A DNA stretch of 32,000 nucleotides, taken from positions 1,920,001 through 1,952,000 of the forward strand of contig NC_013967.1 of the NCBI RefSeq assembly GCF_000025685.1, in the 5' to 3' direction. Position numbers and translations under genes: made by a program. Shown in pieces: positions 1,746-27,240 of the stretch (position 1 is its first letter; each line of letters starts with the position of its first letter). The DNA is from Haloferax volcanii DS2. GTDB taxonomy: Archaea; Halobacteriota; Halobacteria; Halobacteriales; Haloferacaceae. The notes under the pieces were generated by a model. That model had not been told where the DNA came from and made no database searches. It saw nothing but the letters and a program-made list of their open reading frames with translations.

Positions 1746-1887
1746 CGGTTATCGGGGACCCGTACTGACCGATGACGGAATCCAAACGAAAAACTAGATT
1801 CTCAACTGACCTGTGGGCCGCCTGCAGGCGTTTGAGGATGGTGACTGTGACAGAAAGTACTTACTGCCGGACCAGATAGTCAGGGGT

Positions 1888-9915: not shown

Positions 9916-10863
9916 ATGCCCTCCGACACGGAGCCGCCGCGGACCGTACTCATGCTACTGTGTCTCGTTGCGGTCGGTGTGGGACTGACACCACTTGCGA
10001 CCGCAAGCATGGGTGTCGCCTCCAACAACGATGCAGAACCGACACCGCCGGATGCAGACGTTCCGGACCATACGCTGGCTCAAGCCCAACTGTCGTCGAC
10101 CACGGACACGGCGACCGAGACAGCGAACACGACGACCACGCCCACGCCCACGACCACGTCGACACCGTCACAGACACCAAACACGACAGCCACCGCCACG
10201 CGAACTCCCACGCGGACGGCGTCTGCAACACCAAACACGACAGCTACCGCCACACGGACGACTGGTCCGGGGACGGCCGACGCGCCACAGGGGCTTACCG
10301 TTGCAGGGCTTTCGGCACCGGAACGACTTCGACCGACGGAACCGTACACCGTGACCGCGACGGTCCGCAATCCCGCTAACGAGACGCGCTCGGAGCGGAT
10401 TGAATACGTCTTTTCCGGGTCGACGATCACAAACCGAACGGTTCGGTTGGCCGGTGGTGCGTCGCGCGAGGTCCAGTTCGAACTGACGGCGAGCGGGCAG
10501 TTGACCGGCACGGAGACGGTTTCGACGGGGACGTACGTCCACGGCGTTCGTAACGCGTCGGGAGCGGGTATCCCGCGCTACCTGCGTGTGACACCCGACG
10601 TCGACCTCGCGATTGAAGCGTTTCAAGCGCCTGCGACGGCACCCAGCGACCGCGAATTTGTCGTCCTAGCGACCGTCTCGAACCCGGCCGAGACAACGAT
10701 CACGCGTGATGTCGCCTATCGCTTCGCTGGAACGACGATCAGCGAGAAAACCATCACCGTCGGGAGCGGCGAGCAACGGCGGGTCGCATTCGCAGTCACG
10801 ACCGAGCGGGTCGAGGCCGCAGGTGACATCCTCCCCGTCGTGAACGACCGGGCTTCCCGTACC
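9916..10863 (+). pseudogene. 5' fragment of a CARDB-repeat secreted glycoprotein gene interrupted by an IS element
   Basis: The fragment encodes a signal peptide and a Thr-rich linker with the duplicated unit PNTTATATRT. Two CARDB-like repeats follow (TVTATVRNPANETRSERIEYVFSG..., VVLATVSNPAETTITRDVAYRFAG...). Host homology stops after ...NDRASRT (codon ACC at 10861..10863). The remaining 22 codons to the stop at 10929 are antisense to the tnpB 3' end. Confidence 0.8.
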
Positions 10864-11010
10864 GCAGGTGGGATATTTGCTAGTCTACGACACGACCTGT
10901 TCTCGCGGTGCAAAGCAACCGCTCTCTGAGTCGAACAGGTGTACCGATGGCTGTGCCACACAGCCGTTACTCCTATCCTCACCGTGAGGACTCGGAGTTA
11001 TCTTCTGACG
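10840..11010 (-). ncRNA. Predicted TnpB omega-RNA (reRNA): scaffold in the tnpB 3' end plus right end, guide in the flanking host DNA
   Basis: The tnpB stop is at 10887-10885 and the IS right-end boundary lies only 21-24 nt further. Nested perfect stems sit in the last ~100 nt of the gene: CCTGTTC at 10896..10902 pairs with GAACAGG at 10933..10939, enclosing GCGGT..ACCGC. A further hairpin GGCTGTG-CCA-CACAGCC lies at 10949..10965. The 5' end of the scaffold is not determinable by eye. Confidence 0.45.
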
Positions 11011-12135
11011 CATATTCTCCGCCCCGTTGCAATCCGCGTTTCCGACCAACCCACACGACGAGCAGACGTACAACCCACGATGTTTCCGGTTCCCTTTCGT
11101 GTCGTCTCCACACCGTGAACACGTCTTCGAGGTGTCCCACTCGTTCTCTTTCAGCACCTCAACGCCACGAATCTTACCTTTGTATTCGAGGTACTGGTAG
11201 ATGCGGTCGAACGCCCACGTATGCAACTTCTTGTTGCCAGTCTTGCCCCAGTCAGAGTCACGAACGTCTTCAGGCCAGCTCACTGCAAGCGTACCAACAC
11301 CGCGCTCGGCACACTCTGTGATGATAGTGTCCGTCAGTGTATGGTAGAAGTGCGTTTCGCGCTCTGCGAGTTTCCGACGTGCCCACATCAACCTCTCGGA
11401 CGGGCCATTCTCACCTTCTGTGTCGTACTCAGCACGCGTGAAGTAGTGCTTGTCCTGTTTGAGCGAGTTGCCGGGGTAGAGAACGTATTCATCGGAGAAA
11501 GCGACCGTGGCGATGTTCTTGATGCCGAGGTCGATTCCTGCCACCTTGTCGCCTGCTGAGTCGTTGGTTTCGAGACTGACTTTGCAGACGAAGTGCAGTT
11601 CCCATTCGTCGCCGTTCCAGACGGCGCGAACGTTCTGCACCGATTCAACTTCCGAGAGGTCAACGTCCGGGCGAGTCTGGTACTCACAGAGGATGAAATC
11701 CGAGAAATGCTCTTTGAGGTTCGAGCCTTTGCTGAGTCGAACCCGATTGTTCTCGGGGTCGTGTTTGAATCCGTCTGCTTTGAACGTGACCGTGGAACGT
11801 GGCCGTTTGTCGCCGTGTTTTCGGTAGCCGGGCGGATTCGACTTCGAGTCTTTGTGTCGCAGGTCGAACCATGACTGGAAAGCGTCAGAAAGTTCTTCGA
11901 TGACTTTCTGACTGGATTGTGCGTTCAAGTCTTTCCAGCACGCTTGGTTCTTCATGTACGATTTGAGCGAACCTTCGTTTGGGATTTTGCCAACCTCGTC
12001 CCACACGCGGTCTGCTGTCCATCGTGCGACGTTCCAGATTTTCGAGGCAGAATCTCCGAGCGAGTCGAGGCCATCGCAGACCTGTTGGTGGTTCTGGATG
12101 GAACCAACGTAGGTGCGAGTGACCTGAATCGCCAT
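10885..12135 (-). CDS. tnpB: TnpB (IS1341-type OrfB) RNA-guided nuclease, 416 aa
   Basis: RuvC-like motifs are present: VAGIDLGIKNIAT (Asp), an acidic residue in the LAERETHFYH region, and GNADCNGAENM (Asp). A Zn ribbon is formed by CSRCG...CSSCG. The lower-GC, basic composition contrasts with the neighbouring genes. Confidence 0.92.
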   Translation of the reverse strand: MAIQVTRTYVGSIQNHQQVCDGLDSLGDSASKIWNVARWTADRVWDEVGKIPNEGSLKSYMKNQACWKDLNAQSSQKVIEELSDAFQSWFDLRHKDSKSNPPGYRKHGDKRPRSTVTFKADGFKHDPENNRVRLSKGSNLKEHFSDFILCEYQTRPDVDLSEVESVQNVRAVWNGDEWELHFVCKVSLETNDSAGDKVAGIDLGIKNIATVAFSDEYVLYPGNSLKQDKHYFTRAEYDTEGENGPSERLMWARRKLAERETHFYHTLTDTIITECAERGVGTLAVSWPEDVRDSDWGKTGNKKLHTWAFDRIYQYLEYKGKIRGVEVLKENEWDTSKTCSRCGDDTKGNRKHRGLYVCSSCGLVGNADCNGAENMRQKITPSPHGEDRSNGCVAQPSVHLFDSESGCFAPREQVVS

Positions 12136-12226
12136 ACATAGCCTATGTAGGAAGATTTAGTTAATCCTACGGATTGGCGTGGAATATCCAGCCTGCCATC
12201 GACGGTGGACTGCGTAGGAAGTGTCG

Positions 12227-12317
12227 GATTCACTCCCGCCGTAAACGGCGGGATTCTCTCCTCGAAGACAGATTCACTCCCGCCGTAAACGGCGGGATTC
12301 TCTCCTCGAAGACAGAT
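12227..12317. repeat. Exact 44-bp tandem duplication (2.07 copies) inside the IS left end, each unit carrying the hairpin CCCGCCG-TAAA-CGGCGGG
   Basis: Units 12227..12270 and 12271..12314 are identical: GATTCACTCCCGCCGTAAACGGCGGGATTCTCTCCTCGAAGACA. A third unit starts with GAT and then diverges. Confidence 0.9.
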
Positions 12318-12341
12318 AGCCTTATCCAGCGAGGTCGGACC

Positions 12342-12884
12342 TACGACCACAGTATCGAGACCGCTGGTGGGGCAACCGTCAGCGATGCGATTCGACTGCG
12401 AAGCGAACCGAGTGCACGCGCGGCGGCGCTCACGACACGGGACGTGCAACTCCTGAGCGACCTTCGGGAAGATACCCGATACACGGTCGCGGTTACGGTC
12501 AGGAACGTCGGAACAACTGCTTTCGACGGGCAGTTCGTCTACCGCCTCAACGGAACCGCCGTTGCGACGCAGAGTCGTAACATCCCGTCTGGCCAACAGC
12601 GGACCATCAGCTTCGAAATCGCCTACGCCGACATCGAGCGGGCGGCTCAGCCCCTTTCGACGCGCACGTCGACACAGTCACTCACCGTGGGGAACGCGTC
12701 GCTGGCCAGCGAGGATGTTACGGTCCACGGACGCATCGCGGACACGGACAGGCGCACAGAGTCTCCGACGCCTCGACAGGCGGCCAACTTCACCGACGAC
12801 TCGGAGGAAGACCCCGAAGCGTCTCGTGCGACGTGCGAACGAGGATTTTTCAGTCGATGTGGCGAAAAACTATTGACCAGATGA
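12342..12884 (+). pseudogene. 3' fragment of the IS-interrupted CARDB-repeat glycoprotein gene
   Basis: The frame continues YDHSIETAGGATVSDAIRLRSEP... into a third CARDB-like repeat (DTRYTVAVTVRNVGTTAFDGQFVYRLNG...RTISFEI). The upstream part of track ORF 12174..12884 (12174..12341) is IS left-end sequence, not host coding sequence. Confidence 0.75.
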
Positions 12885-13889: not shown

Positions 13890-16142
13890 TTACGAGGACC
13901 GACTGGCAGCCACGCGCTCGGCAATCGAGTCCAAGAGGACGAGCGTCGGCGGGAGCGTCGCCAACGACGCGATGAGCGTCAGAAACACGACGCCGACGGT
14001 CAGGAAGCCGAACCCGCTGAGAATCGGGAACGGCGACAACACCAGCGCCGAAAAGCCGAACACGGTCGTCATTCCCGACACACTAATCGCCTTTCCGACC
14101 CGAGTGGCCGCGGTCTGAACGGCATCGAGTCGACTGACGCCCGCCCGCTGTTTCTCTTGGTAGTATCGGTCCATCACGATGATGGTGTACTCCGCACCGA
14201 TTCCGACTGTCATCGCCCCGAGACTCGCACCGAGTGGCGAAACCGGGATATCCAGCAGATACATGTAGATGTTCTGCCAGCCGATGACGAACACCATCGG
14301 GATGAGCGGCGCAACAGCCTTCACCAGATTGCGGTAGTACACGAGGAGCAGGATAAACACGAACAGGACGCCCAGTCCGGTCGTCACGTTCCGTGAGTTG
14401 ATCTGCTCCACGATAGAGGGGGTCGCAATCGCGGCGGTCCCCGTGATTTCCGCCGTCACTCCGGGTGGGGGGCTACTGTACGCGATTGACTCGCGCGTGT
14501 TCTCCAAGAACGAGAGGGCCTGCTGAGTGGTCATATCCTGTGCGGAGTAGACCATGATGTGCGCACGCCCGTCGTTGTAATACTGGAGTTTCTGTCTCTC
14601 GGGGACGGTTTCGAGCACGCGTTTGACGCCGCTTTCAGTCTGGGGGAGTTGGCCCCCGTTGTACTGTTTAACCAGCGTCGCTGGCGAATCGACGCCTTGT
14701 ACCAGCGGGGTCTGTGTCGCGATGTGCTCGAAGTCGAGCATCCACTGCAACGTTGCCGGATGTTTGAGATTCGTCCCGGTCACGAGCACGTCGTAACTCG
14801 TGCTCGAACCGCCGCCGGCAACAGAGCGGAACTGCTGGAGGTCGGTGTAGGCGGGGAGGTCCTGCGGGATGAACTCTTCCGTGTCCGCGAGCGTGTCGAG
14901 CGACCCGCCGGCCTGAAAGCCTACGAGAGCAATCAGCAGTGCGATACTGAGGACGAGCACCGGATGACTCGCGAGTATCCGCGCCGAACGACCGAGCAGT
15001 TCCCCGACGAGGCCGATGCGATCCGAGTCGCCTTGGTCTTGAGACTGCGTCGTTGTGGCCGTTGTCGGGGCGTCGTCTTCGTCCGGCGTCTCGTCTTCGG
15101 CGTCGCCCCGCCGGCGGACCCAGAGGGTGAGCAGCGGGAGGAGAACGAGTATCCCCGCGATGAAGGTGAGAAGCACGCCGAAGATCGAGGTCTGGGCGAA
15201 CCAGATAATCGACGGCGACGACGTCGACACCCACGTCGCTCCGAACCCCAACGCGGCGGCGAGCATAGCGACGAAGACCGGTGGACCGATTCCGCCAAGC
15301 GCTTGCGGAAGCGCTTCGCGTGGCGGATGGTTTTCGAGTTCTTCCTCGTACCGCTCGTGGAACTGCACGGAGTAGTCGATGCCCAGCCCAATCAAAATCG
15401 GGAAGACCGCGCTGGTCATCGTCGAATTGGGGACACCGGCGTATCCAATCGCTCCGAACGTGTAGATGACGCCGACGAAGACGGCGACAATCGGGAGGAG
15501 ACGAAGGCGGACGCCGCGGAACAGGAAGAACAGCGCCACGACCATGAGCCCGATTGCGAGGCCGAGTAACTGCTGGGTGCTCTGCTGAATGAGCGTCGAG
15601 AGCTGTGCAGAGAACGCGGCACTGCCAGTGACGGTTACCGTCGTCCCGGAGGGGAATTCCGCCCAGTCAGTCGCTTCAACGGCCTGCGTGTAGATGGGGC
15701 GTTCCTCCGTCTGAGAGAGCCCCGTATCGAAGACGATCTGGACGACCGTGTAGTCCGGCGACCCGATAACGCTTCGAATCTTCGCCTCCGAATCGGGGAT
15801 TCGGCCGTACTCCTGGCGGACCTGATCGGCCGGACTCGTTACGGTATGGACGTTCGGCTTCGTCGACATCTGCTGGTCGACGCGGTCAATCGCGTGGAGC
15901 GTCTGCGGCTCCGTAATATCTCCCCGTACGAGAACGGCGATGCTGCCCCGGTCAAACGACTCCGTAAACGCGTCGAACGTTGGGTTGTCCGCAACGAATG
16001 CAGCGTCGCCAGTAACGCTGGTAATCTGCGCAGCACCGCCGAACGCGGTGAAGATAAGCAGGACTGCGAGAAGCAGCACTGCGACCGGTCGCTGTTGGAC
16101 CTGTCTTCCGACCGCGCTGAACAGCTGGCGTAGCTTATCCAT
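13890..16142 (-). CDS. RND-superfamily (MMPL-type) exporter, 750 aa
   Basis: The protein has two-fold internal symmetry. Each half has one TM helix, a large extracytoplasmic loop and a bundle of five TM helices. The halves are joined by an acidic cytoplasmic linker (RRRGDAEDETPDEDDAPTT...). It starts 28 nt downstream of the COG1361 gene on the same strand. Confidence 0.85.
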   Translation of the reverse strand: MDKLRQLFSAVGRQVQQRPVAVLLLAVLLIFTAFGGAAQITSVTGDAAFVADNPTFDAFTESFDRGSIAVLVRGDITEPQTLHAIDRVDQQMSTKPNVHTVTSPADQVRQEYGRIPDSEAKIRSVIGSPDYTVVQIVFDTGLSQTEERPIYTQAVEATDWAEFPSGTTVTVTGSAAFSAQLSTLIQQSTQQLLGLAIGLMVVALFFLFRGVRLRLLPIVAVFVGVIYTFGAIGYAGVPNSTMTSAVFPILIGLGIDYSVQFHERYEEELENHPPREALPQALGGIGPPVFVAMLAAALGFGATWVSTSSPSIIWFAQTSIFGVLLTFIAGILVLLPLLTLWVRRRGDAEDETPDEDDAPTTATTTQSQDQGDSDRIGLVGELLGRSARILASHPVLVLSIALLIALVGFQAGGSLDTLADTEEFIPQDLPAYTDLQQFRSVAGGGSSTSYDVLVTGTNLKHPATLQWMLDFEHIATQTPLVQGVDSPATLVKQYNGGQLPQTESGVKRVLETVPERQKLQYYNDGRAHIMVYSAQDMTTQQALSFLENTRESIAYSSPPPGVTAEITGTAAIATPSIVEQINSRNVTTGLGVLFVFILLLVYYRNLVKAVAPLIPMVFVIGWQNIYMYLLDIPVSPLGASLGAMTVGIGAEYTIIVMDRYYQEKQRAGVSRLDAVQTAATRVGKAISVSGMTTVFGFSALVLSPFPILSGFGFLTVGVVFLTLIASLATLPPTLVLLDSIAERVAASRSS

Positions 16143-16170: not shown

Positions 16171-17793
16171 TCATCGACGGCGGTAGATGACGGCTATCGC
16201 TCCGATTCCGAGGAGTGCGACGACTCCGAGGACCGACATCGGAACCGGGAGTCCACCGCTCGACGGGGAGAGCGCAATGCCGACCGGCAGGCCGTCAGTG
16301 TACCTCGTGTCGCCGTCAGCCTCGTCGTACCGAACCTCGACCGAGGCGTCGTAAGCCTTGACAACCGCACTCGACCCGGCACTGACGGTGAACGTCGCCG
16401 TTTTGGTTTCTCCCGGCTGCATCTCTCCGAGATACGCGCCGTCGTCGGACGTCGAAATCGGGTCGCTCACGAAGAGCTTGGCGTTCGTCGCCGACACCGG
16501 TTCTTCGCCGTTGTACTGCACCGTGACGTCCACCGTGTCGGTCGCGCCCGGCGAGACGCTCGTGTTGACGCCGACGACCGTGAACGGGTCCTGTTCGGGT
16601 TCGATTGCTATCGACTTCCGAATCGGCGACGTCGTTCTCACGTCACCGTCTTGGTTCTCGTATTCGACGACGAACGGGAACATGTTCGTCCCCGGTTCAG
16701 CGCCCGCCGGAATCGAGACGGTAAACGAGACCGGCTTCGACTCGCCGGGGGCGAGGTCTCCGATAGCGGACTCGCCGTTCGTCGGCGTCACGAGCGCCGT
16801 GTCACCGATTTGGACTGCGAGGTTGTTCGCGGTGCCGCTGCCCGTGTTGACGACCTGTGCGTTGATTTTCGCTTCACCTTCGTCGACCCTGAATCGCTCC
16901 GTCTCGATGTCGCGTATCTCGAAGCTTCGCTCGGGGTTCACCGCGATGCCGGTCGTCAGCGTGTCCGACGTTTCGGTGACGCCGTTCTGGTTCTGGTACG
17001 ACACGGCCAGGTTGACGGGGTACTCACCTGCCTGGGTCTCCGCCGCCGCACCGACCTGGACCGAGAGGTTCGTCCGCTCGCCCGGTTCGAGGGTCGGGAC
17101 GTACAGGCTCGTCGACGACTGCGGATTCTGCATCGTGCCGAAGAAAATCGTCGGCGACTGCGTCGTGAGCTGGACCGACGACGACGTTGCGGTTCGCGTG
17201 CCCGTATTTTCGAGCGCGAACGAGAGCTGGCCGGTGTCGCCGGCGAATACGGCGTTGTTACCTTCGCTCACGACCTCGAACTGCGGGCGGTCTTCGACTT
17301 CGATCGTCACCGACTTCTCTCTCGTGACGGTCCGCCACGTGTATTCCGGTCCGTCGACGCTGCCGTAGGTGACCATCCGGACGTACTTGTACTGCACCTC
17401 GACGGGTATCTCGTAGGTGCCCGGCTCGGCGTTTCCGAGTTCGATGTTGAAATCAAACCGAGCGGTCCCCGAGTCGGGGATGGTGCCCGCGATAACGGTT
17501 CCCGTCTTCACGTCGATTGGTGCATCGATCTGTTCTTCGAGAATCTCCATCTCCACGCTCTGTGCGGTCTGGACTTCCTGTTCGTACTGTGCCGGCCCAC
17601 CCTGTTCGAGCCGACCGTTGTTGCTTGCGACAACCGACAGCGTCGCGGCCTCGCTCGACCGGTAGGTGTTATCCGACACGCTGAGCGAGAGCTCCGGGTT
17701 CCCGTACACCGAACTCTCGGCCGACACGGGGACTGCGGCAATCGACGTTACGACTAGTACACAGAGGAGTATCGCTGATTTGTTCCGAACCAT
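16171..17793 (-). CDS. COG1361/CARDB-type surface (S-layer-domain) protein, 540 aa, with a C-terminal TM anchor
   Basis: Signal peptide MVRNKSAILLCVLVVTSIAAVPVSAES, followed by repeated beta-sandwich units (NTGTRTATSSSVQL, VVNTGSGTANNLAVQI). The C-terminal anchor is LPVPMSVLGVVALLGIGAIAVIYRRR. It is a paralogue of the partial CDS at 1..1572. Confidence 0.88.
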   Translation of the reverse strand: MVRNKSAILLCVLVVTSIAAVPVSAESSVYGNPELSLSVSDNTYRSSEAATLSVVASNNGRLEQGGPAQYEQEVQTAQSVEMEILEEQIDAPIDVKTGTVIAGTIPDSGTARFDFNIELGNAEPGTYEIPVEVQYKYVRMVTYGSVDGPEYTWRTVTREKSVTIEVEDRPQFEVVSEGNNAVFAGDTGQLSFALENTGTRTATSSSVQLTTQSPTIFFGTMQNPQSSTSLYVPTLEPGERTNLSVQVGAAAETQAGEYPVNLAVSYQNQNGVTETSDTLTTGIAVNPERSFEIRDIETERFRVDEGEAKINAQVVNTGSGTANNLAVQIGDTALVTPTNGESAIGDLAPGESKPVSFTVSIPAGAEPGTNMFPFVVEYENQDGDVRTTSPIRKSIAIEPEQDPFTVVGVNTSVSPGATDTVDVTVQYNGEEPVSATNAKLFVSDPISTSDDGAYLGEMQPGETKTATFTVSAGSSAVVKAYDASVEVRYDEADGDTRYTDGLPVGIALSPSSGGLPVPMSVLGVVALLGIGAIAVIYRRR

Positions 17794-18049: not shown

Positions 18050-21000
18050 GTGGTGGGTAACAATCTGATTTCGTGGGCGGTGGTGCTCGTTGTCGTCTGT
18101 ACGCTTTTTACGCCCGTGTCGAGTGCCCCGGCCGCGGCAGCGCCGCCTGCGGTCACGTTCGTCGAGACGCCAATCCAGTCGGATACGACGTGGACCGCGG
18201 ATGAGGGTCCGTATCGACTCATCCGGAGCGTCGCTATCGAGCCCGGTGCGACGCTCACGATTCGCCCCGGTACGGAAGTGCAACTGGCGGAGGGGGTTTC
18301 GCTCACCGTCCGGGGCTCGTTGCAAGCCGAGGGCACTGCCGAACGGCCGGTTCGAATCACGCAGAGCGCGCCGTCGGGGCGGAATCTCAGATGGGAGACG
18401 ATTCGCTACAACGGCACCGAATCGTCGACGCTCTCGCTTCGACACACGACGCTCCACGGCGGTCACAGCGGGATTACGACGACGAGCGGAGCCGGCTCCG
18501 TCACAATCGTCGACTCGCGCTTGGAGAACTTCTCCGTGGCGGGTATCTCCGTCAACGGCACGGCGATGCCCCCGGTCGAACTCACGCGGTCGACGCTGAC
18601 CGACATCGGCGGCCACGCCGTCCGCGCGAGCCCCTCAACCGGGGCCGTGGAGGAGGTCGAACTGAACACGACGGACCGACGACGGAACCAGACGGTACGG
18701 CACACGCTCGGACTCGCCCTCGGCGTCGGCGTCTCGATGGAGACGATTCGGCTCCGGTATCCCACCGAGCGGTCGGTACGCGACGTCGACGCCGAGACGC
18801 TCGACCGAATCGGCCTCGACACCGACAACGATGGAGACATCGACCGGTCGCTCGACGACGACGTTTCGGACGTCTCGGTCAGCGGGCGTCGCGTCGAGAT
18901 TTCGCTGTCGCGGTCGGTGTACGTGTCGAGTCGGGACCGGCTCATCGTCGAGTACGGCGGGGTCGTGAACCCACGGACCCGAGGCGTGTACCCCATCGGC
19001 GTCAGCGTGCTCGAACACCGGACGCCGCAGCTATCGGACGGTGTCCACGCGATGTACGTCGTCGGCGAGGAGACGACGCCGTTCGCGTACACGCGGCCGA
19101 CCGACCTCACACGCGTCCGAGGTATCACCGTCAGTCAGTCCGTGTTCGACGGGATTGATGGTGCGGGAGTGTTCGCCGCCGCGGATATCGTCACCGGCGT
19201 CAGAATCAGCGAGAGTCGGTTCACCGACGTACGGGGCGACGGCGTGGCGATACGGGCCGCCCAAAGTGAAAGCAGTTTCCGCGACAACCGCCTGCGCGCC
19301 GGCGATGCGGGGATTCACGTCGAAACCCGAACGCAGACGACGCTGGTCGCGAGCGAAAATCGGATTTCGGAGTCGGAAACCGGGATTCGCGTTCGACAGT
19401 CCGAGCGGCGCGTCCGCGGCGTCACACGGGTGACGCTCCGCGGAAACGAGTTGGTCGCCAACGACCGCAACGGACTCGAAATCCAGTCCGAAACGAGCGA
19501 GGGCGAACTGCTGCTCGCGAACAACACGATGAGCGAAAACGGGGGCGACGGGGTCGCGCTCTCGAACTGGGCCATCAAGGACAGCCGCGTCAGCGGCAAC
19601 CAACTGTTCGACAACGGCGACGACGGCATCGCAATCGACAGCCACGTGGTGCGGAACCTCACGCTGTCCCGGAACCGAATCGCGGACAACGGCGGCGACG
19701 GACTCGACGTGTCCGTCCGCGCGTTGGTTCGAGATGTCGCTGCGACCGACAACACGATTTCCGACAACCGGGGCCACGCGCTCGCGGTGCGCTCCGACCT
19801 GCTCGTCCATCGCGTTGCTGTCGCGGGGAACGACCTCACCAACAACGGCGGGGCTGGGCTCCTCGTTTCGACCCCGCTCACGCACAACGGGCGGCTCAGC
19901 GTGACGGACAACGTGCTCGTTGCGAACGGTTACGGACTCGTGGCTCGCGGGACGCTGAATGCGACGGTGCAGCGCAACGACATCGTGTTCAACACGAACT
20001 CGCACGTCCGACCGCCACCGCTTCCCGGCGTCGACCCCGGTACGGGAGTCTACATCGCGGAAGGGCCGCGCGGTGCGGTCCTCGACCAGAGCGACCCGGA
20101 CGCCCCGTTTGCTGAGCTCGTTGCGAACCCGCGGCTCCGGCAACAGATCGAGATTACGCGGCTCTGGGGCGATACGGTCGCCGTCCTTCGCACCGACGGG
20201 GTGAGCCACGTCCGCTCGACGACCGAGGGTGCGGTCGACGTCCGCCGCGTCGACGGCACGCTCCCGACGGGTGTCGAACTCTCGTACGCCAACTCGACCC
20301 CCGACCGCTTCCGGGTCGCCGACAACGACATCTACGGTCACGACACCGGGATGGAGATAAATATCACGCAGCTCGTCACGGCGAACACGACGGCACGAAT
20401 CGTCACCGACTCGATACAGACGGTCAACGCGGAGTCGAACTACTGGGGTGCCGCGAGCGGACCCTACCACGCGTCCATCCTGCCGGAAGGCGAGGGCGAC
20501 GAGGTCACGATTACCAACGGCTGGGTCGACTTCATTCCGGTCGCGGACGCTCCGACCGGCCAGCAGTACCGACGGCCGACTGCCCGCCTCGACGCGCCGT
20601 CGGCGGCCGAGCCGGGCAGTCGAATCGACGTTTCGGGGGCCGATAGCACAGCCGGGACCGGGTCGGTCACCACGTATCATTTCGTCGTTAACGGGACGAA
20701 CCACACGACGCGGGACAGCGCCGACCTCCGCCTCCAGATGCCGAACGAGACGCTCTCGGTCTCACTCGCTGTCGAAGACGACCTCGGAATCGACAGCAAC
20801 GCCTCCGCAACGGCGCGCGTCCGGGCGGCGTCATCCGGCGACGCGGCGGTGAGCGCTCCGGGGAGTCAGTCGGCCGCGTCCGGCCCCGAACAGGGGGTGT
20901 CGTCCGGGGCTGGACTCCGTTCTGCGTGGGGTCTCCTCGGCGGTGGCTGTCTCCTGGCTGCGCTCTTCTTCGGCGGCTACGGGATGGTCCGGACGGTCCG

Positions 21001-21178
21001 AAACCAGCCGGTCCCGATGCGCGGGGTGTTCGTGCAGGCGCTCGCGGCGTTCGGTATTCTGGTCTGGCTCGTCGCCGGCTTCGTCGGCTCGACGCAGCTC
21101 GTCCTCGTCGGCGGTGCCGCCGGGGTCGTTTGGGGCGGGCTCACCCTCGTCGCGTACCTTCTCGCCACTCGCCTCTGA
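18050..21178 (+). CDS. Right-handed parallel beta-helix (PbH1/NosD-like) surface protein with a PKD-like domain and three C-terminal TM helices, 1042 aa
   Basis: Consecutive ~22-aa PbH1 repeats are present: NNTMSENGGDGVALS, GNQLFDNGDDGIAID, RNRIADNGGDGLDVS, DNTISDNRGHALAVR, GNDLTNNGGAGLLVS. An NYWG..SGP motif is present. The PKD-like segment is PTARLDAPSAAEPGSRIDVSGADS...TYHFVVNG. The hydrophobic C-terminus is LLGGGCLLAALFFGGYG, ALAAFGILVWLVAGFVG, VGGAAGVVWGGLTLVAYLLA. The start is GTG at 18050 or 18053, with no in-frame ATG nearby. Confidence 0.85.
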   Translation: MVGNNLISWAVVLVVVCTLFTPVSSAPAAAAPPAVTFVETPIQSDTTWTADEGPYRLIRSVAIEPGATLTIRPGTEVQLAEGVSLTVRGSLQAEGTAERPVRITQSAPSGRNLRWETIRYNGTESSTLSLRHTTLHGGHSGITTTSGAGSVTIVDSRLENFSVAGISVNGTAMPPVELTRSTLTDIGGHAVRASPSTGAVEEVELNTTDRRRNQTVRHTLGLALGVGVSMETIRLRYPTERSVRDVDAETLDRIGLDTDNDGDIDRSLDDDVSDVSVSGRRVEISLSRSVYVSSRDRLIVEYGGVVNPRTRGVYPIGVSVLEHRTPQLSDGVHAMYVVGEETTPFAYTRPTDLTRVRGITVSQSVFDGIDGAGVFAAADIVTGVRISESRFTDVRGDGVAIRAAQSESSFRDNRLRAGDAGIHVETRTQTTLVASENRISESETGIRVRQSERRVRGVTRVTLRGNELVANDRNGLEIQSETSEGELLLANNTMSENGGDGVALSNWAIKDSRVSGNQLFDNGDDGIAIDSHVVRNLTLSRNRIADNGGDGLDVSVRALVRDVAATDNTISDNRGHALAVRSDLLVHRVAVAGNDLTNNGGAGLLVSTPLTHNGRLSVTDNVLVANGYGLVARGTLNATVQRNDIVFNTNSHVRPPPLPGVDPGTGVYIAEGPRGAVLDQSDPDAPFAELVANPRLRQQIEITRLWGDTVAVLRTDGVSHVRSTTEGAVDVRRVDGTLPTGVELSYANSTPDRFRVADNDIYGHDTGMEINITQLVTANTTARIVTDSIQTVNAESNYWGAASGPYHASILPEGEGDEVTITNGWVDFIPVADAPTGQQYRRPTARLDAPSAAEPGSRIDVSGADSTAGTGSVTTYHFVVNGTNHTTRDSADLRLQMPNETLSVSLAVEDDLGIDSNASATARVRAASSGDAAVSAPGSQSAASGPEQGVSSGAGLRSAWGLLGGGCLLAALFFGGYGMVRTVRNQPVPMRGVFVQALAAFGILVWLVAGFVGSTQLVLVGGAAGVVWGGLTLVAYLLATRL

Positions 21179-21435
21179 GGCGTCTTCGAGACCGACACAC
21201 GGGTGTCAACCTTGTTCGACTGCGGCGGTATGTATGACGGATTTGGGTCTAAGTAGTGGAAAAACTCATTTATTCTTGGCTCAGTGAACTGTCCTGTGGA
21301 AATGGAGCAATCCAACCTGACAGTCCCACTGACCTACCGGCCCTCCCAGAATCAGACACCGAGTACACGACCGGTTCGGATTCGAGAACGACCCGACTGC
21401 GGCGGTGTATCGAGTGTGACATCCGGGGCCGACGT

Positions 21436-22626
21436 ATGACAGCTAAACGCGGCGCTCGACTCGCTGTCGTGGCGACAGTCGCGCTGGTTGCCGTTACGAG
21501 CGTACTCGTCGCGAGCCTCCCGGCGGTGAGCGCACAGTCGGGCCAAATCGTGGTCAACTCGACGACGGTCGAGCCGCGCGAGCCGTACGTCGGTGAATTG
21601 GTCACGGTCAGGGCGACCGTTTCGAACTTCGAGAGTAGCTCCGGCGGCGCCGACCTCAAAGAGGTCACGCTCCGGTCGGGCGGCGGCATCGTCGCTGAAG
21701 CGAGCAACCTCGGAACGCTCGGACCGGGTGGGTCCGTCGACGTGCCGCTGTCCACCACGTTCACGAGCGCAGGGGAAAAACAGCTCAAAGTCCACGTCTC
21801 CGGCCGCCACGAAAACGGGAACGTCATCAACGTCGAGTACCCGGTCATCGTGACGGTCGAAGAACGAGACGTGCGGGCTGGCCTCTCGGTGGGCGAACAG
21901 ACGAACGACACCGTCAACGTGGAGTTGACCAACTACGGGAACACGAACCTCTCGAACGTCGAAATCACCGCGTCAGTAAACGGTTCCCAGATTGCCCAGC
22001 GGTACACCGCGAATCTCGACCCGGACGCGAACCGCTCTGTCGTGTTCGACACCGCCGATATGAGCGACCGGGTCGTGCTGTTCACTGCGACGTACACCGT
22101 CGACGGAGAAACGTTCACGACCACGCTGTCGGAGGAGATAGAGGACGACTCGGTCCCCGGAGAGATTCGACTGACGAGCATCGAGACCACGCAAAGAGCC
22201 GGCTCCGTGACGATACAAGGCGACGCCGCAAACGTCGGGAACACGGACGCGAGCTCGGTCTTGCTGACGGTCAAGGAGACGGCAAACGTCACCCACGGTT
22301 CGCCGTCCGGCGGCTACTTCGTCGGGCGCGTGGAGGCGAGCGAGTTCGCCACGTTCGACGTGACCGCAGAGCTCAGCGGCGAGCCGACGACCGTTCCCAT
22401 CGAGGTGTCCTACATCGTCGACGGCGACCGGGTGACGACGACACAGGAGGTGCCACTCGATTCCGGTGGTGCCGCGCCTGTCGCCGCCGGTTCCCAGTCC
22501 GAGCAGGGTCCGGGCTCCAATGAATCGCAGTCGGGCGGTTCCCAGCTTCCGTTACCCGTTATCGGGGGCGTGCTGGTGGTCGTCGTGCTCGGTGGGGTCG
22601 GCATCTATCGCTGGCGCCAGCACTAG
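21436..22626 (+). CDS. CARDB/COG1361-like triple beta-sandwich protein with a C-terminal TM anchor, 396 aa
   Basis: Track ORF 21256..22626 trimmed to the ATG at 21436 (MTAKRGARLAVVATVALVAVTSVLVASLPAVSAQS). It has three repeats (VTVRATVSNFES, VNVELTNYGNTNLSNVEI, VTIQGDAANVGNTDASSV). The C-terminus is LPLPVIGGVLVVVVLGGVGIYRWRQH. Its stop at 22624..22626 lies 1 nt before the next ATG. Confidence 0.8.
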   Translation: MTAKRGARLAVVATVALVAVTSVLVASLPAVSAQSGQIVVNSTTVEPREPYVGELVTVRATVSNFESSSGGADLKEVTLRSGGGIVAEASNLGTLGPGGSVDVPLSTTFTSAGEKQLKVHVSGRHENGNVINVEYPVIVTVEERDVRAGLSVGEQTNDTVNVELTNYGNTNLSNVEITASVNGSQIAQRYTANLDPDANRSVVFDTADMSDRVVLFTATYTVDGETFTTTLSEEIEDDSVPGEIRLTSIETTQRAGSVTIQGDAANVGNTDASSVLLTVKETANVTHGSPSGGYFVGRVEASEFATFDVTAELSGEPTTVPIEVSYIVDGDRVTTTQEVPLDSGGAAPVAAGSQSEQGPGSNESQSGGSQLPLPVIGGVLVVVVLGGVGIYRWRQH

Positions 22627-22627
22627 C

Positions 22628-23305
22628 ATGAGTGTCATTGAACTCGCTGACGTCGTGAAACGGTATCAGAACGGCGAGGAGGTCATCGCCGCGCTCGACC
22701 ACGTCGACTTTCGCGCCGACCGCGGTGAGATGGTGACCATCATCGGCCCGTCTGGGTCCGGGAAAAGTACCATGCTGAACATGATCGGGCTGCTCGACAC
22801 GCCGACAGAGGGGACGGTCCATCTCGACGGCCGTAACGTGACCGACTTCTCTGAGGACGAACTGACAGAAGAGCGTCGGTCCGGTATCGGGTTCGTGTTT
22901 CAGGACTTCCACCTGCTGCCGATGCTGACCGCGACCGAGAACGTCGAACTCCCCTCGATGTGGGACACCTCGGTTGACCGGCACGACCGCGCCCAGGACC
23001 TCCTCCAGCGGGTGGGGCTCGGTGACCGACTCAATCACACTCCCGACCAGCTCTCGGGCGGGCAGCGACAGCGCGTCGCCATCGCGCGGGCGCTCATCAA
23101 CGAGCCGGATATCCTCCTCGCCGACGAGCCGACGGGGAACCTCGACCAAGACACCGGCGAGACGATTCTGACCGAGCTGACTCGGTTGAAAGAAGACGAG
23201 AACGTCGCGATTGTCGCGGTCACCCACGACGAACAGATGCTCGAATACACCGACAGCACCGTCCGACTCGTCGATGGCGTCGTGACGGAGGTCTCCGGAC
23301 GATGA
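22628..23305 (+). CDS. ABC transporter ATP-binding protein, MacB/LolD-type (225 aa)
   Basis: Track ORF 22466..23305 trimmed to the ATG at 22628 ([13 protein letters not shown]). Walker A is GPSGSGKST, the signature motif is [15 protein letters not shown] and Walker B is [12 protein letters not shown]. Confidence 0.93.
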
Positions 23306-24444
23306 GCGTCGTTGATTTCCTCTGGCGCTTCCCCAGCGTCCAGATGGCGTGGCGGAACCTCGGCCGGAACAAACTGCGGACGATGTTGGCCGCGCTCGGC
23401 ATCATCATCGGCGTCGTCTCGATCTGTTCGCTCGGAATGGCGACGGCTGCGATTCAACAGCAGGCGACGTCACAGTTGGGAAGTATCGGCAACGAGGTGT
23501 CGATAACGTCCGGTCAGGACAGCGACACGGACGGGGTGACCGACGACCAGGTCGATACGATACGGAATCTGGTGACCGACGCGGAGGTCGTCCCCCAGAA
23601 GACGAACTCGACGACGATCTCTTCACGAAACGGACGGGAGGTGAGGGTAAGCGTCACCGGGGTGACGAACGCGGCAGCGCTATACAACCTCACGTCCGGC
23701 GAAGCACCCTCCCGGCTGTTGAGCGGCGCGCTCCTCAGCAACAGCACCGCCACGACACTCGGGATTGAGGAGGGCGACCCCGTCGAGTACGACGGCCAAC
23801 TGTACCGCGTACAGGGGCTCATCGAGGAAGAAAACGCGTTCGGCTTCGGCGGCGGTGAACTGGTGTTACCCGAGTCCGGCCTCTCCGACCAGAACCACTA
23901 CAACACCGTGACGGTCGTCGCCGAGGATAGCGCGACCGCGATAGAGATCGGTGGGGAGCTGGATCAGTACTTCAACACCGAAGACGAAGAAGAACTCAGC
24001 ATCAACACGTTCGGGAACGCGGGCCAAGTCGGCGGGTTCTTGGAGACGCTTTCGCTCGCCTTGTTGGCCATCGGCGGCATCTCGCTCGTCGTCGCGAGCG
24101 TCGCCATCCTCAACGTGATGCTGATGAGCACGGTCGAACGCCGCGGGGAAATCGGCGTCCTCCGCGCCGTCGGCATCCGCCGCTCCGAAGTGCTGCGGAT
24201 GATTCTGACGGAGGCCGCCCTGATGGGCACACTCGGCGGGCTCGTCGGGGCGACCCTTTCGCTTGCGGCGGGGCTCGTCATCTTCCAGATGATTACTGGA
24301 GACCCGCTCGGAGCGCTCCAGTGGAGCAGTGCGCAGTATCTGGTGTACGGGTTCGGGTTCGCCGTCGTTGCGAGCGTCCTCAGCGGGATTTACCCCGCGT
24401 GGAAAGCGGCGAACGACCGGCCGGTCGACGCATTGAGAGGCTGA
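23302..24444 (+). CDS. ABC transporter permease, MacB-like extracytoplasmic domain plus FtsX domain (380 aa)
   Basis: The N-terminal TM helix ([23 protein letters not shown]) is followed by a ~200-aa extracytoplasmic domain. Three C-terminal TM helices carry the FtsX-type motif [20 protein letters not shown]. An ATGA start/stop overlap with the ATPase gene lies at 23302..23305. Confidence 0.9.
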
Positions 24445-24471: not shown

Positions 24472-25284
24472 TCAGCCGCCGGCGGATTTCTGCGTCGTCT
24501 CCGAAGCCGGGCCACCCTTGTGCAGTCGCGTGAGCCGGCGAAACACCGAGAGTACGAGTAGATAACAGAGAACAAGCCCGGCAGCGAACGCCCCGGCGAC
24601 AACCCAGAACACGACCACCCCTCCCGCTTTGAGCAGTCGAACCAGAAGCGACGCCGCGTTGGGCCCTAAATACCCTGCGAGCGTGGTTTTATTCGCCTGT
24701 GAGTCTCCGGTGATATCTTGGATGTTGCGGGACTCGACGCCGGCCGCGGTGATAAGAAACCAGCCGGCGAAAACGGTCACTCCATCGAGCGAATACGGCT
24801 GCGGCGTTGCTGCAACGACCGAAAACACGGCCACAAACGCCCAGGTGAACCCGACGCCGATAGAGTCGAGCGTCGGATAGCGCTTCAGCCAGCCGTAGCT
24901 TCCGAGGACGACGAGGGGAATCTGCGCAAAGAGTAGGTCGCTGACGTTTGCAGTCCCCGTCCGAAACACCAGCAGACAGACCACGAGCTCGTAGCCGAGC
25001 AGCGCGAGTAGCTCCGTCACGAGTAGTTCCGTCTGGTACCGTCGCACGAGCTTCGTCCGATACGGCTGATTCACCTCGTCTTCGGCTGTCACCCCCCGCC
25101 GGTCTTCGACATATACGAAATAGAACAGGAGCGGTGCGAGCAGCAGCCCTCCCCCAACTGAGAGGGGAACAACTCCCAACGCGACACCCGTGATTGCAAC
25201 CATCGCGGCAGAGAGCAAGCACAACCAGATGTTCAACTGGAAAAACAGGAATCGCATATCCGCGACTCTCATCTCAGTATGCAC
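24472..25284 (-). CDS. UbiA-prenyltransferase-family-like polytopic membrane protein (up to 270 aa; start uncertain among the ATGs at 25284, 25272 and 25257)
   Basis: About eight hydrophobic helices. The Asp-rich loops are degenerate: YVEDRRGVTAEDEVNQPYRT, compared with NDxxDxxxDxxNxPxRP, and NIQDITGDSQANKTTLA, compared with DxxDxxxD...TL. Confidence 0.5.
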   Translation of the reverse strand: MHTEMRVADMRFLFFQLNIWLCLLSAAMVAITGVALGVVPLSVGGGLLLAPLLFYFVYVEDRRGVTAEDEVNQPYRTKLVRRYQTELLVTELLALLGYELVVCLLVFRTGTANVSDLLFAQIPLVVLGSYGWLKRYPTLDSIGVGFTWAFVAVFSVVAATPQPYSLDGVTVFAGWFLITAAGVESRNIQDITGDSQANKTTLAGYLGPNAASLLVRLLKAGGVVVFWVVAGAFAAGLVLCYLLVLSVFRRLTRLHKGGPASETTQKSAGG

Positions 25285-25563
25285 CTCCTTGAGGGGAGAC
25301 GTTGCGGTAGATACGGTGTTGACGCCGCGGAGGGTAGTCCGTCCCGGTCATCTCTCGGACCTACCTCGCTGCTCGTACTATACTTGTTGGGTCAGCAACT
25401 CACGACCGAAACGACAACCCGGCCGTCGACTGCCGTTCACGCCCCGTCGGCACCCGTTTCTTTCATTTTCGTGACTAGATATGCGTCTCGGGTGCAAATC
25501 TGTGGACTATATTACACAATTCCAAAAAGAATAATTAGCACCCATCTACTGGTATAGAACACG

Positions 25564-27240
25564 GTGTTTGACCGATGGCTCACCCTCGAAATCTCCATAG
25601 CGCTGATGTATCTTGGGGTGATTCCATCTGTCGTGAACTGCTGTCTTCTCTGGAAGGAACGTGACAAACCAGGAGTCATCTGGTTTATCTTATCGATGGC
25701 CACGGGGGGCCTCTGGGCACTATTGTTCGCGACGTTCACACTCATCCCGGACCCGGGTCTCACGTTAGCGGTCGCAAATTTCTTCTGGGTGTCGATTCCG
25801 ACTGCCGCAGTGACGTTCTTCTTACTCGCGTACGAGTTCGTTTTCAAACAAACGGTCCCGTCAACCGTCGTTGCTGCGTTGTTCAGCCCACTCGCAGTGC
25901 TATTCGTTCTCTCCTGGAGTAACCCGTACGAGTTGGTCTTTACAACTGCATACTACGTGACCGCCGATGGGGTGTTACATTTTCCAATGTTCGACGGCCC
26001 GCTGAAAGTTCTCGTAACGCAGGTCTATGGCTACCTCCTCGTGTTTCTGGCTGCGGGCATGTTCGTCGGCGAACTGCTCCGGACGAACGGCACACAGCGC
26101 CGACAAACCGTGTACCTCCTGGTCGTGTTTTCGATGCTCGTCGGCTCGACGATGGTTAAGGTCGCGGGGGTCGTTCCGATCTATTTCGATCCCACGTCGG
26201 TCTTGTACTCGTTTTCCGGACTCTTTTTCGCGTATTCGATTCGAGAACACGGGTTGCTGAAGTTCGTTCCCGTCGCTCGCGAACAGACGTTTGATGAGAT
26301 TACGGACCCCATCTTCGTGATTGGCTCTTCCGGGCACATCGTGGATGCGAACCGGGCCGGGAGCCAACTGTCTGATCAGAGTGTCATCGGGACCAAAATC
26401 GAACAACTCATCTCCGAATCCGCCGTGTCTTCGGACGAACAAGACACCGGCGTCATCAAATTAGAACTGGACGGCGGCACGCGGATATTTTCCATCGAAG
26501 CATCCGAAATCGTCTACGGTCGGGGTGTGACCGGGAAAATCGTCGTGTTGAGCGATATTACGGCGCTCAAGGAGCGCGAAGAGGAGTTAGATCTGCTCAA
26601 GCAAGTTCTCTCGCGTATCTTCCGGCATAACATTCGGAACGACCTCAACGTAATCGCGGGGTTTGCGGCGATTATCCGAGACTCAACGAACGGCGAGACC
26701 GCGCGGTCGGCGGACCGCATTCACACGCGTTCGATGAAAGTCGTTGACCAAGCGGCGAAAGCGCGGAAGATCGAGACCGTGCTGTCGTACGCCGAAACGG
26801 ACCAGCGCCCGCTCGAAGAGTACCTCTCCAAGGTCAAACAGAACATGCCGGCCGAGCTGTTGAGCTGTGTCTCGTTCGCTGTCGACGACGTCGTACTCGA
26901 CGCACACCCCCGGTTTGACCTCGCACTCACCGAGTTAATCGAGAACGCTATCTCTCACCACTCCGGCGAGGAGCCGATTGCTGTGCGCGTCACAACCGAC
27001 GTGTCCCCGACGGACGTGACGATTATCGTCGAGGACAACGGACCGGGGTTACCGCCATCCGAATTCGCCGTGTTAGAAGCCGGCGAAGAGACGGACCTCG
27101 AACACGGGTCCGGTATCGGTCTGTGGTTGGTCTACTGGATCGTCTCCCGCTCGAACGGGACGCTCAGTGTGCAGGTCTCCGATTCCGGAACGGAAGTTCG
27201 AATCACACTGAATCGACCGGACTCGACCTCTGACGTTTAG
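25564..27240 (+). CDS. Sensor histidine kinase: N-terminal 7TM domain, PAS, HisKA-like and HATPase_c (558 aa)
   Basis: Seven N-terminal hydrophobic helices, followed by a PAS-like segment (PIFVIGSSGHIVDANRAG...). The H-box is LKQVLSRIFRHNIRNDLNVI. The ATPase motifs are ELIENAISH, EDNGPGLP and GSGIGLWLV. The start is GTG at 25564; the first in-frame Met is codon 15. Confidence 0.85.
   Translation: MFDRWLTLEISIALMYLGVIPSVVNCCLLWKERDKPGVIWFILSMATGGLWALLFATFTLIPDPGLTLAVANFFWVSIPTAAVTFFLLAYEFVFKQTVPSTVVAALFSPLAVLFVLSWSNPYELVFTTAYYVTADGVLHFPMFDGPLKVLVTQVYGYLLVFLAAGMFVGELLRTNGTQRRQTVYLLVVFSMLVGSTMVKVAGVVPIYFDPTSVLYSFSGLFFAYSIREHGLLKFVPVAREQTFDEITDPIFVIGSSGHIVDANRAGSQLSDQSVIGTKIEQLISESAVSSDEQDTGVIKLELDGGTRIFSIEASEIVYGRGVTGKIVVLSDITALKEREEELDLLKQVLSRIFRHNIRNDLNVIAGFAAIIRDSTNGETARSADRIHTRSMKVVDQAAKARKIETVLSYAETDQRPLEEYLSKVKQNMPAELLSCVSFAVDDVVLDAHPRFDLALTELIENAISHHSGEEPIAVRVTTDVSPTDVTIIVEDNGPGLPPSEFAVLEAGEETDLEHGSGIGLWLVYWIVSRSNGTLSVQVSDSGTEVRITLNRPDSTSDV

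Follow-up and report, generated by a model that had tools for sequence, protein, structure and literature searches.

ATP-binding cassette (ABC) systems of the MacB type, such as MacB, LolCDE, and FtsEX, do mechanical work on partners outside the cytoplasm, and to our knowledge the partner proteins characterised so far are all bacterial. The best-studied ABC ATPase in structural biology is MJ0796 of Methanocaldococcus jannaschii. Here we analysed a stretch of 32,000 nucleotides from Haloferax volcanii DS2 (contig NC_013967.1, positions 1,920,001 to 1,952,000, forward strand), which is called the window in the following. Three adjoining genes in it, HVO_2082, HVO_2083, and HVO_2084, encode a membrane-anchored array of immunoglobulin-like (Ig) domains, below called the Ig stalk, an ABC ATPase, and a MacB-type permease. 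This triad is a pan-archaeal MacB-type system with an Ig stalk as its partner, noticed in print but uncharacterised, and MJ0796 belongs to it.

Parts of the system have been seen before from other directions. Cassettes encoding SpoIIM-like membrane proteins were described in Archaeoglobi, Pyrococci/Thermococci, and Methanococcales (Makarova et al.; PMC4158269, PMC5898192). A SalXY-type ABC transporter was reported near these cassettes and a role in defence was suggested (Makarova et al. 2014, PMC4158269), and Yip1-like genes and 'S-layer proteins' were then added to the loci, together with the suggestion of membrane remodelling or vesicle formation (Makarova et al. 2015, PMC5898192). Loci of this kind, published for Archaeoglobi, Methanococci, and Thermococci, were recovered in our analysis as well, and in the window a SalXY-type ABC pair and a COG1361-type 'S-layer' protein also stand together in one locus. 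The system of Makarova et al. (arCOG01996 SpoIIM-like, arCOG02054 Yip1-like, SalXY-type ABC, 'S-layer proteins') agrees with the triad in its ABC family and in its COG1361-type Ig protein; the ABC and S-layer proteins were treated as peripheral in those papers, and the triad of Ig protein, ATPase, and permease was not singled out.

In H. volcanii, HVO_2082 to HVO_2084, without HVO_2081, have been called a three-gene operon, and an unexplained cluster of ten N-glycoprotein genes, hvo_2062 to hvo_2084, was reported in the same study (Schulze et al. 2021, PMC8241124). HVO_2082 and HVO_2084 were both detected there as AglB-dependent N-glycoproteins, which implies that they are expressed and exposed on the surface, and HVO_2081 was another such N-glycoprotein (Schulze et al. 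2021, PMC8241124). Our literature searches, including searches on MJ0795/MJ0797 and on CARDB together with MacB and archaea, found no functional study of the triad. A first-pass annotation of this DNA had stated that no system with this combination was described. That statement holds in so far as the triad was never characterised; it does not hold for the three-gene operon or for the neighbourhood of SalXY-type ABC and 'S-layer protein', both of which were already published.

The described systems differ from the triad in several respects. The MacAB-type pumps (E. coli MacB, 5NIK; S. pneumoniae Spr0693-0695, 5XU1; YknXYZ) resemble it in the architecture of the permease, the clade of the ATPase, and the presence of an accessory gene upstream. 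In the triad, however, the ATPase and the permease are separate polypeptides, there is neither an adaptor of the HlyD/YknX family nor a TolC, and the accessory protein is a monotopic Ig stalk with its transmembrane (TM) anchor at the C-terminal instead of the N-terminal end. The setting is also different, archaea with an S-layer and not an outer membrane, which haloarchaea lack. FtsEX, LolCDE, and BceAB belong to the same superfamily and their output is likewise work on an extracytoplasmic partner, but the partner in the triad is not a coiled-coil hydrolase activator, a LolA, or a BceS kinase. MJ0796 (1F3O, 1L2T, 3TIF) has its orthologue in Methanocaldococcus sp. FS406-22 in an operon of the same type, with Ig-repeat protein, ATPase, and MacB-type permease; that operon differs in having extra small membrane proteins between the genes, Yip1 and SpoIIM upstream, and an Ig protein with more domains.

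The triad and its distribution

The genes of the triad are arranged in the window as follows:

HVO_2082, 21436-22626, + strand: Ig-stalk type I membrane protein of 396 residues with three CARDB-like beta-sandwiches, first gene of the triad
HVO_2083, 22628-23305, + strand: ABC ATPase of 225 residues (Pfam ABC_tran)
HVO_2084, 23302-24444, + strand: MacB-type (type VII) permease of 380 residues (Pfam MacB_PCD and FtsX)

HVO_2082 and HVO_2084, as well as HVO_2081 upstream of them, were identified by exact-sequence look-up, and the ATPase gene is named HVO_2083 by its position in the published H. volcanii numbering. The junctions are tight. The stop codon of HVO_2082 (TAG, 22624-22626) is followed by a single base, C, and then by the ATG of HVO_2083 at 22628, and HVO_2083 and HVO_2084 overlap in the four bases ATGA (23302-23305). 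Both the 1-nucleotide gap and the 4-nucleotide overlap that had been claimed could be read directly in the sequence.

For a census of the triad, a profile of 25 CARDB homologues was run against one genome per species, which gave 80 loci in no fewer than 20 genera of haloarchaea, and these loci were searched by tblastn with the window proteins. In 77 of them the genes of the CARDB protein, the ATPase, and the permease adjoin each other on the same strand; the remaining three (L032, L037, L067) end at contig borders, and there was not a single counter-example. The order is kept even where the identity to the CARDB protein is only 28-30% and that to the permease 38%. The reverse check started from three permease homologues that were picked without regard to CARDB, a second Haloferax paralogue and those of Haladaptatus and Halopiger, and all three have a CARDB gene upstream, encoding 468-565 residues, with overlapping junctions. 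The proposed genetic coupling of a CARDB gene with a MacB-type ABC pair is thus supported from both sides, and the loss of linkage that the first-pass annotation had named as refuting it was not seen. The triad recurs far more widely than chance would allow: its order is shared by 20 or more haloarchaeal genera and extends into further archaeal classes.

Clustering of the genes upstream and downstream of the haloarchaeal triads gave no further partner that is generally conserved. A cytoplasmic family of ~434-524 residues, encoded upstream of the triad in one divergent clade, was judged to be unrelated, on its sequence alone.

Paralogous triads in several genera adjoin a pair of small genes, one for an ArsR-type helix-turn-helix protein of 97-127 residues (HTH_5/HTH_20) and one for a membrane protein of 138-162 residues, which is DUF8036 in the two loci with Pfam calls. 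The pair flanks the triads L011, L036, L043, L046, L047, L061, L062, and L066, and it was also seen in L088 (2441-3305) and L090 (1466-2178). The two genes could encode a regulator or sensor dedicated to those triad operons. A DUF7123 gene lies near the triads L088 and L089.

Among the homologues of the permease, the first 120 appeared to be haloarchaeal, and so did the first 150 representatives of the CARDB profile, as far as could be told from those hits with names and from ten sampled ones; the wider distribution was reached with MJ0796 as the query. The following gene orders were found outside the haloarchaea:

Methanocaldococcus sp. FS406-22: SpoIIM, Yip1, CARDB (507 residues), small membrane protein, ATPase (the MJ0796 orthologue), small membrane protein, MacB-type permease
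Methanococcus aeolicus: order as in Methanocaldococcus sp. FS406-22, with a protein of 505 residues in the CARDB position
Methanohalophilus: Yip1, CARDB, ATPase, permease
Syntrophoarchaeum: Yip1, CARDB, ATPase, permease
Geoglobus: protein of 417 residues, ATPase, permease
Nanoarchaeia contig (DPANN), L092 5001-8044: ATPase, CARDB, permease, a permuted triad in which all junctions overlap

The haloarchaeal CARDB profile matched the proteins of Methanohalophilus (E-value 4e-41), Syntrophoarchaeum (3e-36), M. aeolicus (6e-29), Methanocaldococcus (2e-24), Geoglobus (3e-10), and Nanoarchaeia (8.5e-8), and all six begin with a signal peptide, continue with Ig repeats, and close with a C-terminal TM helix and a basic tail. 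Matches at E 2e-24 to 3e-10 mark the methanococcal and archaeoglobal Ig proteins as orthologues of HVO_2082. Judging from these profile matches and the common architecture of the Ig proteins, the triad is an old and widespread archaeal module, present in haloarchaea, Methanococcales, Methanosarcinales, Syntrophoarchaeum, Archaeoglobales, and DPANN. The order in the Nanoarchaeia contig also implies that the linkage survives a change of gene order.

A Yip1 gene stands directly before the Ig gene in three separate orders (L084 1673-8233, L093 582-7724, L085 3138-6837, L087 3221-6831). A hidden Markov model built from three archaeal Yip1 neighbours had no match in the window or in any haloarchaeal locus, and the haloarchaeal triads differ from the system of Makarova et al. 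in having no Yip1 within 10 kb; SpoIIM-like genes were not searched for. Neither an adaptor of the HlyD/YknX family nor a TolC/OEP outer-membrane factor was found, by Pfam family, among the scanned window proteins or in the archaeal loci. The only bacterial relative of the ATPase that was examined, in Marinitoga, has genes for a TolC-like OEP and a membrane fusion protein (MFP; YknX_C) directly upstream of the ATPase gene.

Proteins of the triad

HVO_2082 is labelled as COG1361 or as CARDB domain-containing in the source annotations and matches Pfam CARDB with 35.9 bits (cut-off 22.7). Its hydropathy indicates a Sec signal peptide, a single C-terminal TM segment, and a short basic tail. The AlphaFold2 model, made from an alignment of 25 sequences, has a mean pLDDT of 81.6 and predicts three beta-sandwich domains (D1 to D3; residues 38-142, 148-234, and 244-340), followed by a disordered linker of ~35 residues (345-378) and the TM helix (379-394). 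The domain closest to the membrane, D3, is the best conserved, with 53% identity as compared to 37-38% for D1 and D2 when homologues outside Haloferax are aligned to HVO_2082, and the size of the family varies from ~390 to ~810 residues through extra distal domains. This pattern is what would be expected if D3 and the TM helix make contact with the transporter, and the distal part serves as a spacer or as a variable binding surface.

A search of the Protein Data Bank (PDB) with the HVO_2082 sequence gave no match. The model, when compared with the PDB by Foldseek, found only generic Ig arrays, namely HYDIN-like domains, MG domains of complement and alpha-2-macroglobulin, and adhesins, and with such matches nothing in the predicted fold points to an enzyme or to a binding protein of the classical kind.

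The ATPase has MJ0796 as its nearest solved structure (1F3O/1L2T, E 4e-64) and is 52% identical to the Methanocaldococcus orthologue. The best NCBIfam matches of HVO_2083 are LolD, MacB, YbbA, DevA, and FtsE, all of them under the equivalog cut-offs (198.8 for FtsE, cut-off 264.85, and 231 for LolD, cut-off 307.75). The permease scores 21.4 against FtsX_actino (cut-off 250) and 41.1 against lolCE (cut-off 362.45); it, too, stays well under the equivalog cut-offs of the MacB, LolCDE, and FtsEX families. HVO_2084 matches Pfam MacB_PCD in residues 27-222 (70.5 bits) and FtsX in residues 256-371 (67.2 bits), and its hydrophobic segments (24-52, 243-280, 308-333, and 346-365) correspond to a layout of one TM helix, an extracytoplasmic MacB_PCD domain of ~200 residues, and three FtsX TM helices. 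It also matches E. coli MacB (5NIK) over the full length (phmmer, E 4e-29). With this architecture in the permease and an ATPase of the LolD/MacB/FtsE clade encoded beside it, the transporter is of the MacB type (type VII).

The role of the Ig stalk

On balance, we find it probable that HVO_2082 to HVO_2084 make up one machine, a MacB-type transporter with the Ig stalk as its dedicated extracytoplasmic partner, which by analogy would do what a periplasmic adaptor does. The order, coupling, and conservation of the genes, the architecture and topology of the proteins, and their expression and N-glycosylation are established; physical contact between stalk and transporter, their stoichiometry, the adaptor role, and the class of substrate are what we infer here. 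The Ig stalk is likely to be a dedicated partner of the pump because the operon coupling is invariant and the linkage survives the permutation of the gene order in DPANN. The stable membrane anchor, the conserved proximal domain next to variable distal ones, and the all-beta Ig array without any enzyme-like or binding-protein fold argue for the same role, as does the usual place of its gene just upstream of the ATPase gene, like that of a bacterial MFP gene.

In such a machine, a dimer of the MJ0796-type ATPase would hydrolyse ATP, and hydrolysis would shift the extracytoplasmic domain of the permease without opening a channel through the membrane, as in other MacB-type systems. The Ig stalk would dock through its conserved membrane-proximal domain and TM helix, and fill the role that the MFP adaptor has in bacterial MacAB-type pumps. 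By spanning the gap from the membrane to the S-layer, it would carry the working end of the pump outwards, and amphiphilic cargo, with toxic peptides or lipid-like molecules as the most likely kinds, could be driven off the membrane and towards or through the S-layer. Should the Ig stalk prove to be a true adaptor, no envelope-spanning accessory of an archaeal exporter would have been described before it, and it would give a handle on how substances pass between membrane and S-layer. The pairing of a MacB-type pump with an Ig-domain stalk is consistent in archaea, from haloarchaea through methanogens to DPANN, and in H. volcanii the triad can be tested directly, as genetics, glycoproteomics, and structures of the S-layer exist for this organism.

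Several observations speak against a pump with an adaptor. Two or three paralogous triads are present in several haloarchaea, which fits defence or detoxification but other roles too. The long flexible linker of HVO_2082 would be just as suitable for a receptor or for cargo on a tether, and the annotation 'macrolides' and the label 'SalXY' are homology transfers and not evidence for a substrate. In some genomes the ATPase and the permease are present but no orthologue of HVO_2082 could be detected (Schulze et al. 2021, PMC8241124); our data suggest that divergence may be part of the reason. The linkage to the S-layer glycoprotein gene, csg, in four genera and the association with Yip1 and SpoIIM in methanogens hint at envelope biogenesis or remodelling over efflux.

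The last point leads to a different explanation, a machine for remodelling or S-layer biogenesis similar to FtsEX, in which ATP would drive the switching or positioning of the Ig stalk and, via the stalk, of other surface proteins, with no expulsion of small molecules. It could act in S-layer assembly, in the handling of lipid-anchored proteins, in changes of cell shape, or in vesicle formation, and FtsEX is the precedent for a MacB-type ABC system that regulates an extracytoplasmic partner instead of transporting. The triad stands directly 3' of an S-layer glycoprotein gene in two species of Halopenitus, H. malekzadehii and H. persicus (L033, L034), and in Halobacterium salinarum (L048), on the same strand and with 40-46% identity between the glycoproteins and that of the window. 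A more divergent S-layer-like protein with PGF-CTERM is encoded directly 5' of the triad in Halosimplex (L039), and in Haloferax csg is 15 kb away. The triad also follows Yip1-type genes in Methanococcales, Methanosarcinales, and Syntrophoarchaeum, and SpoIIM-type genes in Methanococcales, and membrane remodelling or vesicle formation is what was proposed for Yip1/SpoIIM loci (Makarova et al. 2015, PMC5898192). The link between triad and csg is nevertheless recurrent but not general, since roughly 70 of the 80 haloarchaeal loci have no csg within 10 kb, and the absence of a Yip1 homologue near any haloarchaeal triad also speaks against a remodelling machine. Several paralogous triads per genome would be unusual for a core biogenesis factor, and the NCBIfam scores for FtsE and FtsX are far under the cut-offs. 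We regard a remodelling machine, the main rival of the pump with an adaptor, as rather unlikely.

Schulze et al. (2021, PMC8241124) offered, as speculation in a supplementary annotation table, that HVO_2082 is an extracellular enzyme with a product that is carried by HVO_2083/2084, or a substrate-binding protein that feeds the transporter. Operon linkage fits with any functional coupling, and so with this one, but three Ig-like sandwiches, with nothing except generic Ig arrays in Foldseek, are not a catalytic or a periplasmic-binding-protein fold, and the anchor is a C-terminal TM helix and not a lipobox. Furthermore, we know of no MacB-type permease that works as an importer, and MacB structures have no transmembrane channel for a substrate, all of which makes an enzyme or binding protein improbable. 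Even less probable, and in our opinion hardly to be expected, is that the Ig-stalk protein is itself the cargo, extracted from the membrane in the manner of LolCDE and passed to the S-layer or released. LolCDE is indeed a MacB-type extractor of membrane-anchored proteins, and COG1361 proteins have long been labelled as 'S-layer domain' proteins. HVO_2082, however, has no PGF-CTERM or lipobox signal, and its TM helix and basic tail are kept from haloarchaea to methanogens, as one would expect if the helix serves as a stable anchor or takes part in an interaction. It would also be uneconomical to keep a dedicated transporter, in several paralogous copies, for a single co-encoded substrate.

The beta-helix gene and the S-layer locus

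Upstream of the triad, on the same strand, are the following features:

HVO_2081, 18050-21178, + strand: PbH1 pectin-lyase-fold beta-helix surface glycoprotein of 1042 residues (Pfam, hydropathy)
Intergenic spacer between HVO_2081 and HVO_2082, 21179-21435, + strand: 257 nucleotides, AT-richer (read in the sequence)

The first-pass annotation had joined HVO_2081 and the triad into a unit of four same-strand genes reminiscent of NosDFY. All four open reading frames (ORFs) are present in the window as claimed; the unit is not supported. The 257-nucleotide spacer probably holds the triad's own promoter, as it contrasts with the 1-nucleotide and -4-nucleotide junctions inside the triad. HVO_2080 to HVO_2084 have no entry in the supplements of the paper on transcription start sites of H. 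volcanii by differential RNA-seq, and the limit of the operon before HVO_2082 is thus a prediction. A promoter scan found no promoter-like sites with a sigma-70 model, which is not meaningful for an archaeon, and a terminator scan, no more meaningful here, found three terminator-like sites, no more than in shuffled sequence.

A homologue of HVO_2081 adjoins the triad only in Haloferax (L001-L006), with 76-98% identity in tblastn and in phmmer searches of six-frame ORFs. The same two methods found no beta-helix homologue within 10 kb of the triad in the 74 loci of other genera, and none was seen at the paralogous Haloferax triads L056, L058, and L088. The supplement of Schulze et al. (2021, PMC8241124) gives, in the column of presumed orthologues, 19 for HVO_2081, 95 for HVO_2082, and 157 for HVO_2084, and HVO_2081 was marked there as 'too rare' for cluster analysis.

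The likeness to NosDFY consists of an ABC ATPase alongside a beta-helix protein, and of a Pfam NosD match in HVO_2081 (57 bits), which is overlapped by a stronger match to the generic Beta_helix family (105 bits). The differences are larger. NosY is a six-TM permease of the ABC-2 type and HVO_2084 has MacB_PCD and FtsX. The NosD gene stands directly before nosF, whereas here the CARDB gene and the spacer separate the beta-helix gene from the ATPase gene. NosD is soluble in the periplasm and has roughly 400-450 residues; HVO_2081 has 1042 and, according to hydropathy, starts with a signal-like hydrophobic segment and carries about three TM segments towards its C-terminus. No nosZ, nosR, or nosL was found in Pfam scans of 19 of the larger candidate ORFs across the 32-kb window, ORFs under 180 residues not being scanned.

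It could still be argued that the beta-helix protein works with the CARDB-ABC module, like NosD with NosFY or as a hydrolase or lyase under FtsEX-like control, as the adjacency is kept within Haloferax, the NosD match exists, and HVO_2081, HVO_2082, and HVO_2084 are all surface N-glycoproteins. Set against the lack of homologues in all 74 loci of other genera and at all three paralogous triads, the spacer, the generic nature of the stronger domain match, the type of the permease, the missing nos genes among the scanned ORFs, and the low number of presumed orthologues, this is very improbable. HVO_2081 is an unrelated, Haloferax-specific surface glycoprotein that lies upstream of the triad by chance, and the four-gene NosDFY-like unit was dropped in view of the Haloferax-only adjacency, a ground for refutation already given in the first-pass annotation, the spacer, and the MacB-type permease.

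Two further observations concern HVO_2081. Residues 230-320 (window 18737-19009), in the N-terminal part outside the beta-helix, have a domain in common with a secreted glycoprotein containing DUF7827 (window 1813-3462; phmmer E 3e-9), the gene of which is just upstream of the S-layer glycoprotein gene. Several public annotations begin HVO_2081 at a later GTG, 18116 instead of 18050, which gives 1020 residues and loses the predicted signal peptide; the start for 1041/1042 residues, as in the DS2 annotation and the first-pass annotation, retains it.

The other genes of the S-layer locus that bear on the triad are:

3913-6396, + strand: S-layer glycoprotein gene csg/SLG, HVO_2072 by position, 827 residues (Pfam PGF-CTERM)
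13890-16142, - strand: exporter of the HAE3 family of RND (MMPL) proteins, 750 residues (TIGR00921, Pfam MMPL)
16171-17793, - strand: second type I membrane protein with CARDB/NPCBM_assoc Ig repeats, 540 residues (Pfam, hydropathy)

The claims that the triad lies at the S-layer locus and has an RND pair upstream were both correct. The 750-residue RND protein matches TIGR00921 with 430.8 bits (cut-off 351.9) as well as Pfam MMPL. The 540-residue CARDB protein has a signal peptide and a C-terminal TM segment by hydropathy, and its gene is divergent from HVO_2081, with the RND gene downstream of it. The pair recurs near the triad in Halobellus rufus (L007), Halopenitus persicus (L034), and Halosimplex (L039), which agrees with the suggestion of a second CARDB-adapted exporter at the S-layer locus. 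A close relationship of its CARDB protein with HVO_2082 was considered and rejected (BLASTP E 0.014, hhalign probability 52%); only fold and topology are common to the two, which are remotely related and do not form one family. We put forward, tentatively and as a possibility that we rather doubt, that C-anchored Ig stalks are independently arisen archaeal counterparts of the periplasmic adaptors, serving both MacB-type ABC pumps and HAE3-type RND pumps and bridging from the membrane to the S-layer. The adjacency to csg would then reflect transport of material to or through the S-layer, including the assembly of S-layer lipid or protein.

A third CARDB-like gene, for a secreted glycoprotein, is interrupted in the window (9916-12884) by a TnpB/IS605-OrfB gene (Pfam OrfB_IS605 and Cas12f1-like_TNB). 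The interruption leaves an N-terminal and a C-terminal piece, and the ORFs are found at 9916-10929 (+), 10885-12135 (-), and 12174-12884 (+). This agrees with the published description of HVO_2076 as 'nonfunctional, targeted by transposon' (Schulze et al. 2021, PMC8241124), and in a related Haloferax the gene is intact and encodes 396 residues (L002 286-1476). Downstream of the triad, a gene for a UbiA-family prenyltransferase on the - strand and one for a HisKA_7TM histidine kinase on the + strand follow (window 24472-27240), an order that is kept within Haloferax only.

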